A DNA stretch of 38,591 bases, taken from positions 1 to 38,591 of the forward strand of contig JBBTRL010000057.1 in assembly GCA_038065195.1 (NCBI GenBank). The letters run 5' to 3'. The notes under the pieces were generated by a model. The model worked only from the letters and a program-made list of their open reading frames with translations, had not been told where the DNA came from and made no database searches. Both the position numbers and the translations under genes were made by a program. Shown here piece by piece: positions 6,080 through 33,598 of this stretch. Position 1 is the stretch's first letter; every line of letters starts with the position of its first letter. Source of the stretch: Patescibacteria group bacterium (GTDB taxonomy: Bacteria; Patescibacteriota; Minisyncoccia; GWA2-38-13b).

Positions 6080-6111
6080 TTTTCAAAAAACTCAATTTTC
6101 ACCACTCTATC
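6080..6111 (-). promoter_or_regulatory. Promoter and leader of prpCDB: TGATAGAGT plus AGTTTTTTGAAAA
   Basis: The minus strand reads TGATAGAGT(6111-6103)-N10-AGTTTTTTGAAAA(6092-6080)-N8-AAGGAGG-N7-ATG. Confidence 0.5.
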
Positions 6112-10272: not shown

Positions 10273-11652
10273 TTAGAATGCTTTTTCCAGTAATCCGGCC
10301 GTCACATGAGAACCAACGCCGGCATGTGATATCCATAGGGCTTTTTTGGCTTTTAGCACCTGCAAGCTTATCCAGTCTTTTGGTTTTTCTTTTTTGCAAT
10401 ATTCCCATATTTTTGTATCGCCGTGGAATTTATCATATTTATTCTGAATTTGCCACAAACATTCTATCCCTTGGAAAATTCCGGTCGCGCCAACGGCATG
10501 CATTGTTCCTAAAAGTCCGCCGGAAAGATTTGACGGGCATTTTCCGCCAAAATAAGCGTCCCCTGATTCTATATAATCGGTTTCTTCTCCATATGGACGA
10601 AGTCCGATGTCTCCGTAGGTTTGCAAATCGGAAATAGTAAAAGCATCATGAAGTTCCACTAAATCTAAATCTTCAATGGGATTTTTTATACCGGCCATTC
10701 TGTAAAGCATATAAGCCGCGAAACGCGCTGCCAAGAAGCTTTCAAAGCCCGGCCAGCGCCCGCCTTGCGCTGTAATTTCTTTAAGTAATTCGTCGTACAT
10801 TCCCGATTTCTCATGAGGAAGCATGGGAATATCCATATGTCTTCTATCGGCTACGCGCAAAGTGTGCGTTCCGCCGGCAATGTAAAGACGACAAGGTTTT
10901 TCGCTTAATTCGTAAGCCAATTCTTCACTGCAAAGCAACATTGATGCGGCTCCAACGCTCATGGCACAGCATTCTAAAACTCTCAATGGATCGCAGATCA
11001 TTTTACTCGATAAAACTTCTTCTATCGTATGTTTACCGCCTTGTTGAGCATAGGGAGAATAATAAGCGTAGAGACGGTTTTTTACGGCTATTTTTGCCCG
11101 AGTTGTTTCTGAAACTTTATATATTTCCGTAAAGCGTCTTGCCATCGGCGCGTAATAAGCCGTGTACATTCTGGCAAGCCGTGTTTCAAAATCTTTGCAG
11201 GCTGCTGTTGAAATATAAAAATTTCCGGTTTTAGTATCTACTTCGTCCATTCGTTCCCAGCCCATTGCCAATACGCAGTCGGCGTACCCGGAAGCTATTG
11301 CCATTGCCGCGGCAAGCACCGTGCTTCCGCCCGTAGCTCCGCCGGTTTTTACGCCGATATTGGGCAAAGGATCAAGTCCCAAATAATCGTGCACCTTCGC
11401 TTCACATAAAAGTTGATCTTGAAAATGATCGGCGAATTCTCCATAAGCGGCAAAATTCAGCAGTCCTTTTATTTCTTTAGGCGATAACAATAAGTCATTT
11501 TCTTGCGTCATTTGCCGATAAGCCATGGCGCACAGTTCTTCCATTTTATATTCCGGAAATCTTTTCCTGAATGGCGTCAATCCGCCCGCTACAACATAAA
11601 CTGGTCGTTGCCATTTTGGGATTCTTAGGTTCCCTTTTCCAAATTTAATCAT
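10273..11652 (-). CDS. Thiolase-like protein, SCP-x / archaeal-type acetyl-CoA C-acyltransferase family
   Basis: Thiolase-fold layout with the G(G)ATGGS..AA region and a C-terminal GGLLG..HAVGATG motif. Its start overlaps the upstream synthetase stop by 4 nt. Confidence 0.75.
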   Translation of the reverse strand: MIKFGKGNLRIPKWQRPVYVVAGGLTPFRKRFPEYKMEELCAMAYRQMTQENDLLLSPKEIKGLLNFAAYGEFADHFQDQLLCEAKVHDYLGLDPLPNIGVKTGGATGGSTVLAAAMAIASGYADCVLAMGWERMDEVDTKTGNFYISTAACKDFETRLARMYTAYYAPMARRFTEIYKVSETTRAKIAVKNRLYAYYSPYAQQGGKHTIEEVLSSKMICDPLRVLECCAMSVGAASMLLCSEELAYELSEKPCRLYIAGGTHTLRVADRRHMDIPMLPHEKSGMYDELLKEITAQGGRWPGFESFLAARFAAYMLYRMAGIKNPIEDLDLVELHDAFTISDLQTYGDIGLRPYGEETDYIESGDAYFGGKCPSNLSGGLLGTMHAVGATGIFQGIECLWQIQNKYDKFHGDTKIWEYCKKEKPKDWISLQVLKAKKALWISHAGVGSHVTAGLLEKAF

Positions 11653-13616
11653 CTTCTGATTACCTCCCTTATCTCTTTCAAAACTTGCGGATTCTCAATT
11701 GACGAAATATCGTCAATCTTTTCTCCCATATAAACTTTTTTTATCAATTTTCGTGGAATTTTTCCGGAACGCGTTTTCGGCAACGCCGAAACGAAATAAA
11801 TAATATCCGGACAAAGAGTTTTTCCGAGTTTTTCGGAAACATATTTTTTCAATAATTCTTCAGCGGTTTCTTTTTGAATTAATTTTGACCATAAAACAGA
11901 AAAACAAACAAAGCATACGATTTTTTCTCCCTTTAATTTGTCCGGAATGCCGATAACCGCCGCTTCTTTTACGGATTGATGACTCATTAAACAATCTTCA
12001 ATTTCCGCGGGACCAACGCGTCGACCGGCAACTTTTATTACATCGTCGGATCTTCCATAAAGAAACCAAAATCCGTCTTTATCGGTTTTAGCAAAATCGC
12101 CGTGATACCAAGTATCTGGCCATCGCGAAAAATATGTTTCAATATATTTTTTTTTACCATTATCGCCGATAAATCCTTTAGTCATTGATGGAAATGGTTT
12201 TTTGCAAACCAAATGTCCTATTTTACCGCGCGTCGGCGTTCCATTATCGTTAAAAACATCAATATCCATACCAAGTCCTGGTCCCCCGAGAGTGCAAGGT
12301 TTAAGCGGCATTATCGGTAATGGAGATAAAAAGCATCCGATAATTTCCGTTCCGCCGGATATATTTATAATTGGGCATTTTTTATTTCCGATATTTTTGA
12401 AATACCAAAGATATGATTCTTTGTCCCATGTTTCGCCCGTAGAACCTAAAATTCTTAACGATGAAATATCATATTTTTTCAAGAAGTCATCGTCAAAACT
12501 TTTAAGTATTCTTATGGCTGTCGGCGCAATCCCAAAAATACTAACTTTATATTTTTCTATAATTCTAAACAAACGATTATGATCCGGCCAATCGGGCTTG
12601 CCTTCAAAAATTACATAGGTGCCGCCGAAAAATTGAACTCCCAATATTTCCCATGGACCCATCATCCATCCAATATCCGTATACCAAAAGAAAATATCGT
12701 TTTTTTTATAATCAAAATAATATTTTATTTCTTTCGTAGTTTGGGTAAGCGCGCCGGCATGGGTATGAATCGCTCCTTTTGGTTTTCCCGTAGTCCCGGA
12801 AGTGAAGAGAATTAAAGCGGGATGTTCAGCGTTAAGGGATTGAGTTTCAATATTTTTTGCGCCGTTAGCCATTTTTAAAAAATCGTCCCAGAAAATATCG
12901 CGATCTTTTTCCATTATCGTTTCTATTTTCAGCCGTTTAATAACAATCGTTTTTTTCAGAGAAGGTATGGTTTTTAGAATTTCGTTGATATTGTTTTTCA
13001 GTTGAATTATTTTATTTCTAAGCGGGAATCCGTCACTTGTAAATAGAATTTTTGCTTTAGCGATGCGTAGTCGTTCTGCCATTGCTTCTGCTCCGAAACC
13101 GGACATAATAGGAAGGGCAATCGCGCCGATTTTCATAGCGGCGAACATAATAATGACAGTTTCGGGAATAAATGACATATAAATTCCGACAACATCGTTT
13201 TTTCCAATGCCGTTTTTTACAAGCGCTTGGCTTGCGCAACAAACTTTTTCGTATAATTTTTGATAGGTGAATGCTATTGAATTTTCGTCATTACCTTCCC
13301 AATAAAAAGCGATTTCCTCGCCTTTACCGTCGCGAATATGACGGTCAAGGCAGTTGTGGACAATGTTAATTTTTCCGTCTAAAAACCAGTGCGTCCAGGG
13401 CATTCCCCATGTGTTGTCATAAAGCGTGCGGTATTTTTTAAACCATTCAATTTTTAAATCATTAACGCAGGCGTTCCAAAACCATTCAATGTTATCGGTA
13501 GAGCGTTTTATAAGTTCTTGGTATGTTTTTATCCCATAGCGTTTCATAAATAGAGCGATATTGCTTTTGTGGAGATAATCGCCATACGGTTCCCAGATAA
13601 AATCATTTTTTTTCAT
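11649..13616 (-). CDS. AMP-forming acyl-CoA synthetase (acetyl/propionyl/acetoacetyl-CoA synthetase family)
   Basis: AMP-binding motif ILFTSGTTGKPKG, YGRSDDVIKVAGRRVGPAEIE and C-terminal LPKTRSGKI are present. Length is 655 aa. Confidence 0.85.
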   Translation of the reverse strand: MKKNDFIWEPYGDYLHKSNIALFMKRYGIKTYQELIKRSTDNIEWFWNACVNDLKIEWFKKYRTLYDNTWGMPWTHWFLDGKINIVHNCLDRHIRDGKGEEIAFYWEGNDENSIAFTYQKLYEKVCCASQALVKNGIGKNDVVGIYMSFIPETVIIMFAAMKIGAIALPIMSGFGAEAMAERLRIAKAKILFTSDGFPLRNKIIQLKNNINEILKTIPSLKKTIVIKRLKIETIMEKDRDIFWDDFLKMANGAKNIETQSLNAEHPALILFTSGTTGKPKGAIHTHAGALTQTTKEIKYYFDYKKNDIFFWYTDIGWMMGPWEILGVQFFGGTYVIFEGKPDWPDHNRLFRIIEKYKVSIFGIAPTAIRILKSFDDDFLKKYDISSLRILGSTGETWDKESYLWYFKNIGNKKCPIINISGGTEIIGCFLSPLPIMPLKPCTLGGPGLGMDIDVFNDNGTPTRGKIGHLVCKKPFPSMTKGFIGDNGKKKYIETYFSRWPDTWYHGDFAKTDKDGFWFLYGRSDDVIKVAGRRVGPAEIEDCLMSHQSVKEAAVIGIPDKLKGEKIVCFVCFSVLWSKLIQKETAEELLKKYVSEKLGKTLCPDIIYFVSALPKTRSGKIPRKLIKKVYMGEKIDDISSIENPQVLKEIREVIRR

Positions 13617-13665: not shown

Positions 13666-13693
13666 TTTTTCAAAAAACTTTTTCCGTATTCTA
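13666..13693 (-). promoter_or_regulatory. Promoter and leader of the acs operon: TAGAAT plus AGTTTTTTGAAAAA
   Basis: The minus strand reads TAGAAT(13693-13688)-N8-AGTTTTTTGAAAAA(13679-13666). Confidence 0.45.
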
Positions 13694-13830: not shown

Positions 13831-13850
13831 CAAACCTTTTTGTGTTTAAT

Positions 13851-13886
13851 AAAAAAGCGTTTCTGCTTAATGCAGAAACGCTTTTG
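13851..13886. terminator. Bidirectional intrinsic terminator after the PanB-family gene
   Basis: agcgtttctgc-ttaat-gcagaaacgct (13856-13882) is flanked by an A-run and a T-run. Confidence 0.75.
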
Positions 13887-13894
13887 TTGCGATA

Positions 13895-14812
13895 TTATTT
13901 CACTAACATTTTTTGCAATTTTTCAAATTCGCCCGACTTCATTTCGTACACATGTTTTTCTTCGGGAAATTTGCATCGTTTCACATCGCTGACATATTCT
14001 TTGAATGCTTCGCCGGCAAAATAGGCGAACCCGATATCTTTTATATTTTTCCAAAAAGCGTTATCCAAGTATATTCCCAAATAATACATAGTTAAATATC
14101 TTTTAACGAATTTTATTTTAAAAAGGTCAAAGCTTCCAAGAATGTCGCAACTTAGTAAAAGTTGTCCATCGCACAATCTTCCGGCGCCAATGCTGAAAAC
14201 CGGAATATTTAATTCATTTCTTATTATCATGGCCGCATTTTCAGTAACTTTTTCCAATAATACGGCGAACACACCGGCTTTTTCCAGGGCCTTAGCGGTT
14301 ATAAGCAATGTTATTGCTTCTTCGGCCGTTTCTCCGTAAATTATTTTAGTTGATACGGCGGTTTGTGGCATCAAACCAATATGGGCCATTACTTTCGTAT
14401 CATTGTCTACAATAGCTTTAATTTGATCAAGCATTTCAATTCCGCCTTCAAGTTTTATGGCGTCGCAACCGGCTTCGTCTATAAAGCGCTTCGCGTTAAA
14501 TATTCCTTCTACGATATCTTCATCATTTTTTCCGCCGTAAGCGCCTTCGGGCATATCGCCGACAATAAAAGTTTCGGGCGCGCCCATTCGGACTGCTCTT
14601 GCGTGTTTAATCATACAATTCATTGTTGGCGAATTAATTGCTGTGCTTTTTTCGCCATAAATCGCCATATTAACCGAATCTCCAATTAAGATCCAATCAA
14701 TATCGGCTTTTTCCGCTTGTCGCGCCATCCAATTTTCGTACAAAACAACTGCCGCGACCGGTTCGTTTTTATTTTTCATTTCAAAAAAATTATTAACAGT
14801 TTTTTTCATCAC
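13895..14812 (-). CDS. panB: 3-methyl-2-oxobutanoate hydroxymethyltransferase family (PanB-like)
   Basis: ILIGDSVNMAIYGEKST, HARAVRMGAPETFIVGDMP, IKLEGG and the C-terminal ..YVSDVKRCKFPEEKH match the PanB layout. Confidence 0.7.
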   Translation of the reverse strand: MMKKTVNNFFEMKNKNEPVAAVVLYENWMARQAEKADIDWILIGDSVNMAIYGEKSTAINSPTMNCMIKHARAVRMGAPETFIVGDMPEGAYGGKNDEDIVEGIFNAKRFIDEAGCDAIKLEGGIEMLDQIKAIVDNDTKVMAHIGLMPQTAVSTKIIYGETAEEAITLLITAKALEKAGVFAVLLEKVTENAAMIIRNELNIPVFSIGAGRLCDGQLLLSCDILGSFDLFKIKFVKRYLTMYYLGIYLDNAFWKNIKDIGFAYFAGEAFKEYVSDVKRCKFPEEKHVYEMKSGEFEKLQKMLVK

Positions 14813-14824
14813 TCCCTCCGTTAT

Positions 14825-15787
14825 TTATCCGACTTTCGGCAAATATAAATCTTTTGGCGCCCAATCGGAAATTTTGAAATCAGTGCCGTATTTTTCATTG
14901 CCTTTGTTTATATTTTCAATAATTTGCCGCGCCGTTTCCACCGCGCTTAATTTATATTCCAAAAGTTTTTCCGCCGGATAGTCGGGTCTGTACATTTCTA
15001 ATCCCGGACCCGGTTCGTCTTTGAAATAAACGGGAGACGCCGCTTTGACTATTTCGCATACTTCTTTAATTCTATTATTTCCGCCCCAACTTTCAAATAT
15101 TCTTGAATGAATGTCCAGCGGGAAATCATCAAAACAGTGGCGGATTTCACCGATTTGTTCTACGGTTAAATCGGTTACTGGATTCATTGTCACACCGAAA
15201 ATAGGCATTTCTTCAAGATAGGAATTTTTTATCAAACTTAACACCAAATTGGCGTCGGCCGGATTGGCGTTTCCGTCAAAAACGGAAAGTTTCAAAACTA
15301 TATCTTTTGGAAAATAGTCTAAGCAAGCGCGTTTCATCAGGTTATTTAACATGCTTTTGCGCCAGACCAAGAATCCGCGAAAACCTAAACTATAAAGGTA
15401 TATTATATCGTCAAAATAACACCTTAACGCTTCTTGTCCTCTCCAGCTCATTCCCGAAATTATTCCCTGCGGCGATTTTGCCTGAATGGCAGAATCCTGA
15501 TAAGTCGGTCTCGTAAACGGCGTCATAATGACTTCAATTCCGAAATCCGCGCCGATTTTGGCGAATTCGCGCAGTTCTTTTTCTTCATAAAAACCGCATA
15601 AAACTTTATTATCCATCATGGGATTTTTTCTTGGCGTTCCGGCTCCTCTTACGCAACAGATTGCCCGATGCCAAGGAACACTCGCTTTTTTAAACGCTTT
15701 AGCGGTTTTCAAAAATATATCCGCGCTTTCAATTCCCGAAACTTCAATACGATAATGCGCGCCGTCCGGAAAGCTGTATCTAATCAT
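14825..15787 (-). CDS. Conserved-looking hypothetical protein, 320 aa, family not recognised
   Basis: Long ORF with an AGGAGG SD. The PanB-like gene follows after a 12-nt gap with its own SD. I recognised no diagnostic motif. Confidence 0.6.
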   Translation of the reverse strand: MIRYSFPDGAHYRIEVSGIESADIFLKTAKAFKKASVPWHRAICCVRGAGTPRKNPMMDNKVLCGFYEEKELREFAKIGADFGIEVIMTPFTRPTYQDSAIQAKSPQGIISGMSWRGQEALRCYFDDIIYLYSLGFRGFLVWRKSMLNNLMKRACLDYFPKDIVLKLSVFDGNANPADANLVLSLIKNSYLEEMPIFGVTMNPVTDLTVEQIGEIRHCFDDFPLDIHSRIFESWGGNNRIKEVCEIVKAASPVYFKDEPGPGLEMYRPDYPAEKLLEYKLSAVETARQIIENINKGNEKYGTDFKISDWAPKDLYLPKVG

Positions 15788-15810
15788 ATTTCCTCCTGTT
15801 AAAATAAAAT

Positions 15811-15845
15811 GTCAAAAAACTAAAATACGATATTATTTTTTACCA
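15811..15845 (-). promoter_or_regulatory. Promoter and leader of the hypothetical/PanB operon: TGGTAAAAAAT plus AGTTTTTTGAC
   Basis: The minus strand reads TGGTAAAAAAT(15845-15835)-N13-AGTTTTTTGAC(15821-15811)-N15-AGGAGG. Confidence 0.45.
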
Positions 15846-15903
15846 TAATTAAATAAAAATTACAATAGATTAGGTTCGTGTTTAATATAGACAAGAACGA
15901 TTG

Positions 15904-15946
15904 TTTATGATAGAAAATAAGGTCAAGTGATTTAGTTTTTTGATAA
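15904..15946 (+). promoter_or_regulatory. Promoter and leader of the mutase-ETF-thiolase operon: TTATGATAGAAAAT plus AGTTTTTTGATAA
   Basis: TGATAGAAA (15906-15914) is followed by AGTTTTTTGATAA (15934-15946), then AAGGAG and ATG 15970. Confidence 0.45.
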
Positions 15947-33528: not shown

Positions 33529-33598
33529 GTTTTTATTATAACATATCCATTAACAGTTTTTTGAAAAGTTTTTATAAAGAAAAGAAAAGAGAAAGAAA

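Follow-up and report, generated by a model that had tools for sequence, protein, structure and literature searches.

A widespread unnamed protein family paired with a PanB paralogue points to an undescribed one-carbon pathway

The contig JBBTRL010000057.1 of a Patescibacteria group bacterium (GenBank assembly GCA_038065195.1) was analysed over 38,591 nucleotides (nt), a stretch referred to here as the window. It carries, on the reverse strand, a gene for a 320-amino-acid (aa) protein of no named family (P0001), followed by the gene for a PanB paralogue (P0002). The unnamed protein belongs to an uncharacterised, widespread family that may well represent a new family of enzymes. Its pairing with PanB, seen in many anaerobic bacteria, speaks less for vitamin synthesis than for an undescribed pathway in which one-carbon units are moved onto or off small keto acids. 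The two genes form a self-contained operon, divergent from a mutase operon that starts at 15940, as seen from their Shine-Dalgarno (SD) sites, the short gap between them and the intrinsic terminator after the PanB stop codon (Table 1). A reading of the window made from the sequence alone (the sequence-only reading) had reported a strong SD site for the first gene and a second gene 12 nt downstream with an SD site of its own. Both sites are present, and the gap is 12–15 nt, since, of the two possible starts (GTG at 14812, ATG at 14809), the ATG is the better fit to the GGAGG at 14815–14819. The terminator hairpin has a perfect 14-bp stem (−20.5 kcal/mol, z −7.1), and none of 200 shuffled sequences folds as well.

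Judged by its 428 homologues (E ≤ 1e-3, 90% clusters) and by the 31 invariant columns of the family alignment, the unnamed gene is a real gene. The homologues are all about 310 aa long and all labelled "hypothetical"; the family comprises 128 representative clusters at 50% identity and at least 521 loci confirmed by tblastn in GTDB species genomes. P0001 has no Pfam match at E ≤ 0.01 and no NCBIfam match, searches of the PDB by sequence and by profile gave no meaningful relative, and a literature search found no description of the family or of a PanB paralogue with such a partner. The suggestion of the sequence-only reading, which could not place the protein and regarded it as a candidate for a new enzyme family, is therefore borne out by more than 400 unnamed homologues that belong to no curated family. 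The closest relative, with 81% identity and the same gene order, is found in Parcubacteria group bacterium GW2011_GWA2_38_13b (L008).

Many of the invariant columns in the family alignment (A1, 40 sequences) are charged. They include D8, R13, E15, S17, E20, E85, R93, K166 and S168, together with N202, R216, D225, H227, R239, Y254, K256 and E258. The conserved columns (invariant or 90%) contain no cysteine, no P-loop and no GxGxxG, so that the lack of a P-loop, a Rossmann motif and a metal-cysteine cluster first noted in P0001 holds for the family. P0001 and its Parcubacteria lineage carry insertions of about 11 residues after residue 50 and about 10 residues near residue 190, and in this lineage both P0001 and PanB lie on long branches, which are typical of fast-evolving proteins of the candidate phyla radiation (CPR). 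The versions found in Symbiobacterium thermophilum (a cultured carrier), Coprothermobacterota and Dehalococcoidia are less diverged.

The AlphaFold2 model built on A1 has a predicted local distance difference test score (pLDDT) of 92.6, a predicted template modelling score (pTM) of 0.91 and a regular beta/alpha alternation. P0001 is thus confidently predicted to fold as a single triosephosphate isomerase (TIM) barrel, with the conserved loop 91–117 modelled at lower confidence. The active-site-like residues R13, E15, S17, E85, R93, K166, N202, D225, H227, R239, Y254, K256 and E258 fall, by sequence, in or just past the barrel strands. Foldseek searches with the model returned generic TIM barrels only (template modelling scores of 0.4–0.5), and VIA-align gave Z scores of 13–15 across the unrelated GH84, CutC, IspG, U32 Mk0906 and class II aldolase structures. 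Because these matches are generic and spread over unrelated families, no function can be read from the fold. The dehydratases IlvD/EDD, the enolase superfamily and UxuA gave no sequence match to P0001 and are absent from its top 50 structural matches, which still leaves room for some similarity; a dehydratase role would be one of analogy and not of family membership. The ketopantoate reductases (ApbA, KARI, DUF2520) gave no Pfam match in this single TIM barrel without a GxGxxG. A feature search of the ESM Atlas yielded sub-threshold phage and U32 leads only. The profile and fold searches for which the sequence-only reading had called placed the protein in no well-characterised, unrelated family; the sole link is a remote one to Peptidase_U32.

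The pairing was surveyed in the 80 best GTDB loci, 63 bacterial and 17 archaeal. PanB lies within 100 nt of the unnamed gene in 46 of the 63 bacterial loci and within 3 kb in four more, in variable order. Paired loci are found in Chloroflexota, Bacillota, Coprothermobacterota, Lithacetigenota, Bipolaricaulota, Actinomycetota, Armatimonadota and Saccharimonadota (eight named phyla), and also in Parcubacteria and Nealsonbacteria, for which no phylum is on record. Conservation of the pair, which had been suggested as a check, thus extends across many phyla. PanB is not found near any of the 17 archaeal loci, and clustering of all flanking open reading frames (ORFs) revealed no other widely conserved neighbour.

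In one Dehalococcoidia order (81 genomes), PanB is present in 77 genomes and the unnamed gene in 11. Ten of these 11 carriers hold a second PanB, which adjoins the unnamed gene wherever coordinates are listed (at least nine cases). Among the 70 non-carriers, 66 still hold PanB, and a second strong PanB was found in two, one of them at a contig edge (Fisher p = 4e-10). A sample taken at the level of the class was uninformative, with the unnamed gene in one of 121 genomes. The Dehalococcoidia pairs adjoin a set of RACo, pterin-binding and URO-D-like corrinoid methyltransferase genes. This synteny is also kept around a pair-type PanB in G212:C14 (L112), where the unnamed gene is not detectable and a 307-aa ORF without a family lies upstream. 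One genome of the order (G187; L108, L109, L110) holds four strong PanB paralogues in differing settings: two in tandem after a DUF2520/Rossmann-like gene, opposite a TRAP transporter, one beside an HMGL-like gene of the isopropylmalate/homocitrate synthase type, and one after FabG-FabF-SDR genes. In several carrier genomes, an SHMT-like segment and one or two GcvT-like segments share one stop-free frame of 840–1350 aa (Table 1), which in G012 lies about 3.5 kb from the pair; these frames may represent a fused or tightly packed one-carbon gene set.

P0002 passes the Pfam profile for PanB and falls below both NCBIfam PanB cut-offs (228.9 vs 272, and 195.6 vs 207.55). Its orthologues in other phyla pass the equivalog cut-offs, and on this evidence the basic chemistry of the pair PanBs is surely PanB-like. 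The E. coli catalytic and metal-binding residues D45, S46, D84, K112, E114, H136 and E181 are invariant in P0002 and 55 clade members, while V179L, V214I, L187V and D157A are clade-specific changes relative to canonical PanB. In the E. coli ketopantoate hydroxymethyltransferase, V214 is a pocket position, and the V214G variant takes larger electrophiles (PMC7610986). In a maximum-likelihood tree with thin sampling of canonical PanBs, all pair-associated PanBs and six unlinked PanBs of carrier genomes form one clade (Shimodaira-Hasegawa-like approximate likelihood ratio test, SH-aLRT, 94). Outside this clade fall the PanBs encoded beside panC in E. coli, G007, G009 and G019, as well as three of the four sampled from archaea. 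The pair PanB thus shares with canonical PanB (E. coli b0134, TIGR00222) its family, all catalytic residues and presumably the chemistry of a Mg-enolate and methylene-tetrahydrofolate, but it belongs to a separate clade and accompanies the unnamed gene instead of panC. The copy in the window is diverged, with an insertion of about 25 aa around positions 240–265.

The pair is, on the evidence of gene content and phylogeny, not a module of ordinary pantothenate synthesis. This conclusion draws on the separate PanB clade, on the occurrence of the pair as an extra copy beside panBC, and on the lack of PanC, PanE, PPS and CoaB matches in the source genome. Three carrier genomes (G007, G009 and G019) have a canonical panB-panC operon and a second PanB that adjoins the unnamed gene. 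The source genome (0.81 Mb, 102 contigs, 94% complete) has the pair PanB as its sole PanB and gave no match for PanC, ApbA/PanE, the archaeal PPS or CoaB; PanD was not searched. The two outcomes that would have placed the pair in a pantothenate regulon, a second canonical panB with panC elsewhere in the genome or pan genes just beyond the window, were thus not encountered for the genes searched. Across 28 carrier genomes, PanC was found in seven and not in the other 21, and in 11 no CoaB match was credible in the sense of exceeding the family cut-off, with the proviso that gene absence in metagenome-assembled genomes never proves loss.

SHMT and FolD also gave no match in the source genome, which does encode ThyX and a GcvT homologue (Table 1). 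The genome also encodes many acyl-coenzyme A (CoA) enzymes. Most carriers hold both SHMT and FolD; the Nealsonbacteria genome G004 is the only one without a credible match to SHMT, FolD or GcvT while keeping ThyX. Two simple roles were rejected. One is that the unnamed protein is the missing ketopantoate reductase, since most relatives in the same Dehalococcoidia order manage without it. The other, rejected as a general explanation, is that the pair is the only source of methylene-tetrahydrofolate in SHMT-less genomes, since the source genome has GcvT and 22 of the 28 carriers have SHMT.

In archaea, the place of PanB is taken by another protein. A protein of about 490 aa is encoded directly beside the unnamed gene, in one operon with it, in six archaeal loci (L052, L054, L059, L064, L085 and L086), of which four are Asgard, one is Bathyarchaeota and one is an unclassified archaeon. 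In each of the four full-length copies scanned, a DapA/DHDPS-like class I aldolase domain is joined to a formaldehyde-activating enzyme (Fae) domain that scores 126–197 bits against a cut-off of 118. Baldrarchaeum carries two such fusions in tandem. The domain combination suggests an aldolase whose aldehyde is formaldehyde, and no paper on DapA-Fae fusions was found. An unfused DapA-like gene of the same cluster occurs in L081 (unclassified), in an operon with the unnamed gene, and in L037 (Dehalococcoidaceae), where the order is DapA-like gene, unnamed gene, PanB. Three Bathyarchaeia loci have the order SHMT-like gene, large cluster-mate, unnamed gene, and one of them (L043) was confirmed as SHMT-like and CdhA.

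Judging by these domain assignments, the partner in every case either joins a one-carbon unit to carbon 3 of a 2-oxo acid or splits it off, with tetrahydrofolate (THF) in bacteria, and with an aldolase and the tetrahydromethanopterin (H4MPT)-dependent Fae in archaea. The unnamed protein stays constant while its pterin-specific partner changes, which argues that it acts on a shared, pterin-free substrate, either the 2-oxo acid or its 4-hydroxy derivative. Rarer contexts add hints, some of them on the type of substrate. A 609-aa metagenomic protein (P0249), known from a single case, has a complete family domain fused to an SMP-30/gluconolactonase-like lactonase domain; all invariant residues checked in a pairwise alignment are kept, and its gene is flanked by FAH-family and SDR genes. 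Of the distant relatives, one sits between two MttB-family methyltransferases, and another, which passes the Peptidase_U32 gathering score, lies in a cluster of SDR, lactonase, enolase-superfamily and aldehyde-dehydrogenase genes typical of sugar-acid oxidation.

The reading preferred here, which is plausible and held tentatively, is that the barrel enzyme and its dedicated PanB catalyse consecutive steps on one small carbon skeleton, the first dehydratase-like and the second a reversal of the PanB reaction. The unnamed enzyme would start from a hydroxy acid (a 2,3-dihydroxy acid of the aldonate type, which a lactonase may set free) and turn it into a 4-hydroxy-2-oxo acid in a dehydratase-like reaction assisted by a metal and by acid-base catalysis. 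The PanB paralogue, by the chemistry of its family a 5,10-methylene-THF:2-oxoacid hydroxymethyltransferase, would then work in reverse and pass the terminal hydroxymethyl carbon to THF. The products would be a 2-oxo acid (pyruvate or 2-oxoisovalerate) and 5,10-methylene-THF. In archaea that use H4MPT, the same second step would be performed by the DapA-like aldolase, which would release formaldehyde for the fused Fae to trap on H4MPT.

The order of dehydration and cleavage is proposed because of the lactonase fusion in P0249 and the sugar-acid-type gene context. In known sugar-acid routes, a lactonase and an acid dehydratase lead to a 2-keto-3-deoxy (4-hydroxy-2-oxo) acid, which is split by a pyruvate aldolase. 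The proposed logic from hydroxy acid to 4-hydroxy-2-oxo acid to aldolase split would be that of the non-phosphorylative routes (Weimberg/Dahms-type and the archaeal 2-keto-3-deoxygluconate, KDG, route), and DHDPS-family aldolases, the lactonase fusion and FAH/SDR neighbours are indeed found around members of the unnamed family, a likeness by gene context only. The pair differs in that both enzymes would be new to such roles and in that the fragment split off would be a one-carbon unit handed to THF or H4MPT, and not a free aldehyde. The cleavage direction is suggested by analogy with methanogens, in which Fae is fused to hexulose-6-phosphate synthase (Hps). The archaeal partner of the unnamed protein is likewise a putative formaldehyde-handling lyase fused to Fae, which suggests capture of formaldehyde on H4MPT, but its lyase domain is a DapA/DHDPS-like class I pyruvate aldolase and not Hps. 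A complex prediction for P0001 and the PanB paralogue (alignments A1 and A2) scored 0.00 and is uninformative either way.

Several findings weigh against this proposal. The dehydratase idea draws on a single fusion protein, with three member sequences on one contig, and on a single distant relative, and the fold searches (Z 13–15) gave generic TIM barrels and no specific dehydratase. Simple dehydration of a 2,3-dihydroxy acid cannot yield ketopantoate. The scores of pair PanBs from other phyla (267–377 bits) lie well above the NCBIfam equivalog cut-offs for canonical PanB, so that these enzymes may still use 2-oxoisovalerate and ketopantoate; similarly, the DapA-like domains pass the dapA equivalog cut-off and might be true DapA. 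Three carrier genomes showed no PanB, and some neighbours of the pair fit a beta-alanine/pantothenate theme, as detailed for the anabolic alternative below. A more specific form of the proposal, a natural "reverse PanB" pathway, is unlikely, if still worth stating. Here, a cofactor-light barrel dehydratase would act on C4 or branched sugar acids (such as threonate, erythronate or apionate), and cleavage by the PanB clade in bacteria or by DapA-like-Fae in archaea would place the hydroxymethyl group onto THF or H4MPT and yield pyruvate.

The alternative that survives best, doubtful but with a real chance of being right, is anabolic. PanB would run forward, from 2-oxoisovalerate or pyruvate and methylene-THF to ketopantoate or 4-hydroxy-2-oxobutanoate, and the unnamed enzyme would process the product as a non-Rossmann ketopantoate reductase, or by forming or aminolysing a lactone, in a pantoate/pantothenate-like or homoserine-like branch. 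The intact catalytic residues and equivalog scores of the pair PanBs agree with this, as does the lack of a PanE match in the source genome, but the unnamed family has no nucleotide-binding motif. Neighbouring genes could supply or join beta-alanine: an omega-aminotransferase follows PanB in Coprothermobacterota and Lithacetigenota, a glutamine synthetase (GS)-like protein and an S58 aminopeptidase occur in Bipolaricaulota, and a carbamoylase-type M20 protein occurs in Dehalococcoidia. In addition, PanB was not found in two archaea that have PPS and CoaB, and one of these (G023, L054) has the unnamed gene beside aldolase-Fae genes; a Fae fusion, however, suits the capture of formaldehyde better than its release. 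The 66 same-order genomes with PanB and without the unnamed gene imply that this gene is dispensable for the normal pathway there, and the panBC genomes carry the pair as an extra. Finally, the 21 carriers without PanC, including the 11 that also lack a credible CoaB match, would make pantoate without a known use for it.

The sequence-only reading had connected the pair to isobutyryl/butyryl-CoA metabolism, a link that found no support. It would have the pair feed or drain the butyryl/isobutyryl-CoA route, for instance from ketopantoate through 2-oxoisovalerate to isobutyryl-CoA for the B12-dependent mutase, and PanB chemistry does connect ketopantoate with the valine keto acid. In the window, as in the 81%-identical Parcubacteria relative, the pair is transcribed away from the mutase operon and has an acyl-CoA synthetase gene beside it. 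At one further locus, a 2-oxoacid:ferredoxin oxidoreductase and an ADP-forming CoA ligase are encoded close by. This neighbourhood is nevertheless restricted to the one lineage: no mutase, ETF or beta-oxidation genes are found at the other annotated loci, where the recurring neighbours are Fae fusions, SHMT-like proteins, CdhA, and corrinoid and pterin methyltransferases. The leader motif that the two operons were thought to share adds little. The motif AGTTTTTTGAAAA has four exact copies in the window and five further copies with one mismatch (Table 1), and the copy reported before the unnamed gene is indeed there, but with two mismatches, a stringency at which the window holds 24 matches against 15 ± 3.8 expected; it was given little weight for this reason. 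The acyl-CoA explanation is accordingly considered improbable.

A role in pterin handling has a similarly small probability. In this view, the unnamed protein would either provide the PanB paralogue with methylene-THF, newly made or regenerated, or mend folate that a PanB side reaction has cleaved. Such a side activity of PanB on folate is documented and drives the clustering of folK with panB (PMC4814558). One-carbon metabolism is the genomic context that recurs, and six of the 28 carriers showed no SHMT, of which the five tested (all bacterial) have ThyX, a consumer of methylene-THF. Against this, the protein keeps its invariant residues whether its partners are of the THF type (in bacteria) or of the H4MPT type (in archaea), and the fold searches single out no pterin-binding barrel. 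The source genome has a GcvT homologue, so that PanB is not its sole route to methylene-THF, and the other 22 carriers have SHMT.

Peptidase_U32 is the sole family detectable by sequence. Weak matches to it were obtained for 13 of the 40 aligned members (best E 0.015), and two distant relatives (P0225 and P0185) clear its gathering score (28.2 and 32.9 bits vs 22.4) in a region of about 157–242. U32 clusters are among the structural neighbours of the family in the ESM Atlas, and the U32 structure Mk0906 (5d88) is among the top structural matches of the P0001 model (Z 13.4, root-mean-square deviation 3.0, 189 residues), on a par with GH84, CutC, IspG and class II aldolases. With the single sequences of E. 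coli UbiU and UbiV, hhalign gave no significant similarity (E about 0.1); in the weak alignment with UbiU, the cysteine-bearing stretch of UbiU pairs with the cysteine-free WGGNNR...SPVYF of P0001. Most U32 proteins have a four-cysteine [4Fe-4S] motif, which matters for function in UbiU/UbiV (PMC10990095). With no conserved cysteine, the unnamed family would have no such site; it also lacks the C-terminal U32 extension, and its partners are PanB or aldolase-Fae instead of the quinone- or RNA-modification genes of UbiU/UbiV, TrhP and RlhA. By these sequence comparisons the family is a cysteine-less, U32-related barrel, linked to PF01136 at the superfamily level, and is not classed as a U32 member because P0001 itself lies below U32 detection and the Fe-S cysteines are absent. 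An ordinary U32 role, whether as a peptidase or as an anaerobic hydroxylase that depends on prephenate, like UbiU/UbiV, TrhP and RlhA, is very improbable without the cysteines, and nothing ties RNA or quinone hydroxylation to PanB.

Table 1. Positions of features in the window (plain numbers) and in other contigs or loci (prefixed numbers).
Feature	Position	Strand	Basis or remark
CDS of the unnamed 320-aa protein (P0001)	14825..15787	-	ORF and translation, homologues, AlphaFold model
SD site AGGAGG of the unnamed gene	15792..15797	-	read from the sequence; 4 nt 5′ of the ATG at 15787
Intergenic region common to the unnamed gene and the divergent mutase gene	15798..15939	.	putative promoter, consensus-level matches only
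CDS of the PanB paralogue (P0002)	13895..14812	-	PF02548, 234 bits
Intrinsic terminator directly 3′ of the PanB stop	13847..13885	-	14-bp stem, 5-nt loop, U-tract
Leader motif, exact copies	2528-2540, 6080-6092, 13667-13679, 33555-33567		
Leader motif, copy 5′ of the unnamed gene	15809-15821		two mismatches
ThyX gene, source genome	C25:1807-2427		
GcvT homologue, source genome	C97:4712-5506		
DapA-like-Fae fusions	L059:8860-10365; L054:8868-10280, 10287-11756; L085:6052-7536; L086:3177-4661; L052:3197-4705		
Family domain-lactonase fusion (P0249)	L119:1305-3134		609 aa
SHMT/GcvT stop-free frames	G002:C22, G010:C30, G014:C18, G020:C40, G024:C46, G027:C8, G012:C12 (L061:9102-11612)		

To our knowledge, every PanB homologue is currently annotated as an enzyme of pantothenate synthesis. 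The PanB clade that travels with the unnamed family comes as an additional copy in all genomes that have the real pathway, and it is retained where no way from pantoate to CoA is detectable. Reconstructions of metabolism in Dehalococcoidia, Bipolaricaulota, Coprothermobacterota, Parcubacteria and many other uncultured anaerobes are therefore likely to overstate vitamin B5 synthesis and to overlook a pathway. For a family that has no Pfam model, the pair is a sharply defined and testable pair of proteins, and the archaeal aldolase-Fae fusions provide an independent handle on its chemistry. If the cleavage direction is right, the pair would be a new way to load folate or methanopterin with one-carbon units. 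A natural pathway that runs PanB in reverse would, if true, be an undescribed way for organic carbon to enter the one-carbon pool of anaerobes, among them the tiny-genome Parcubacteria.

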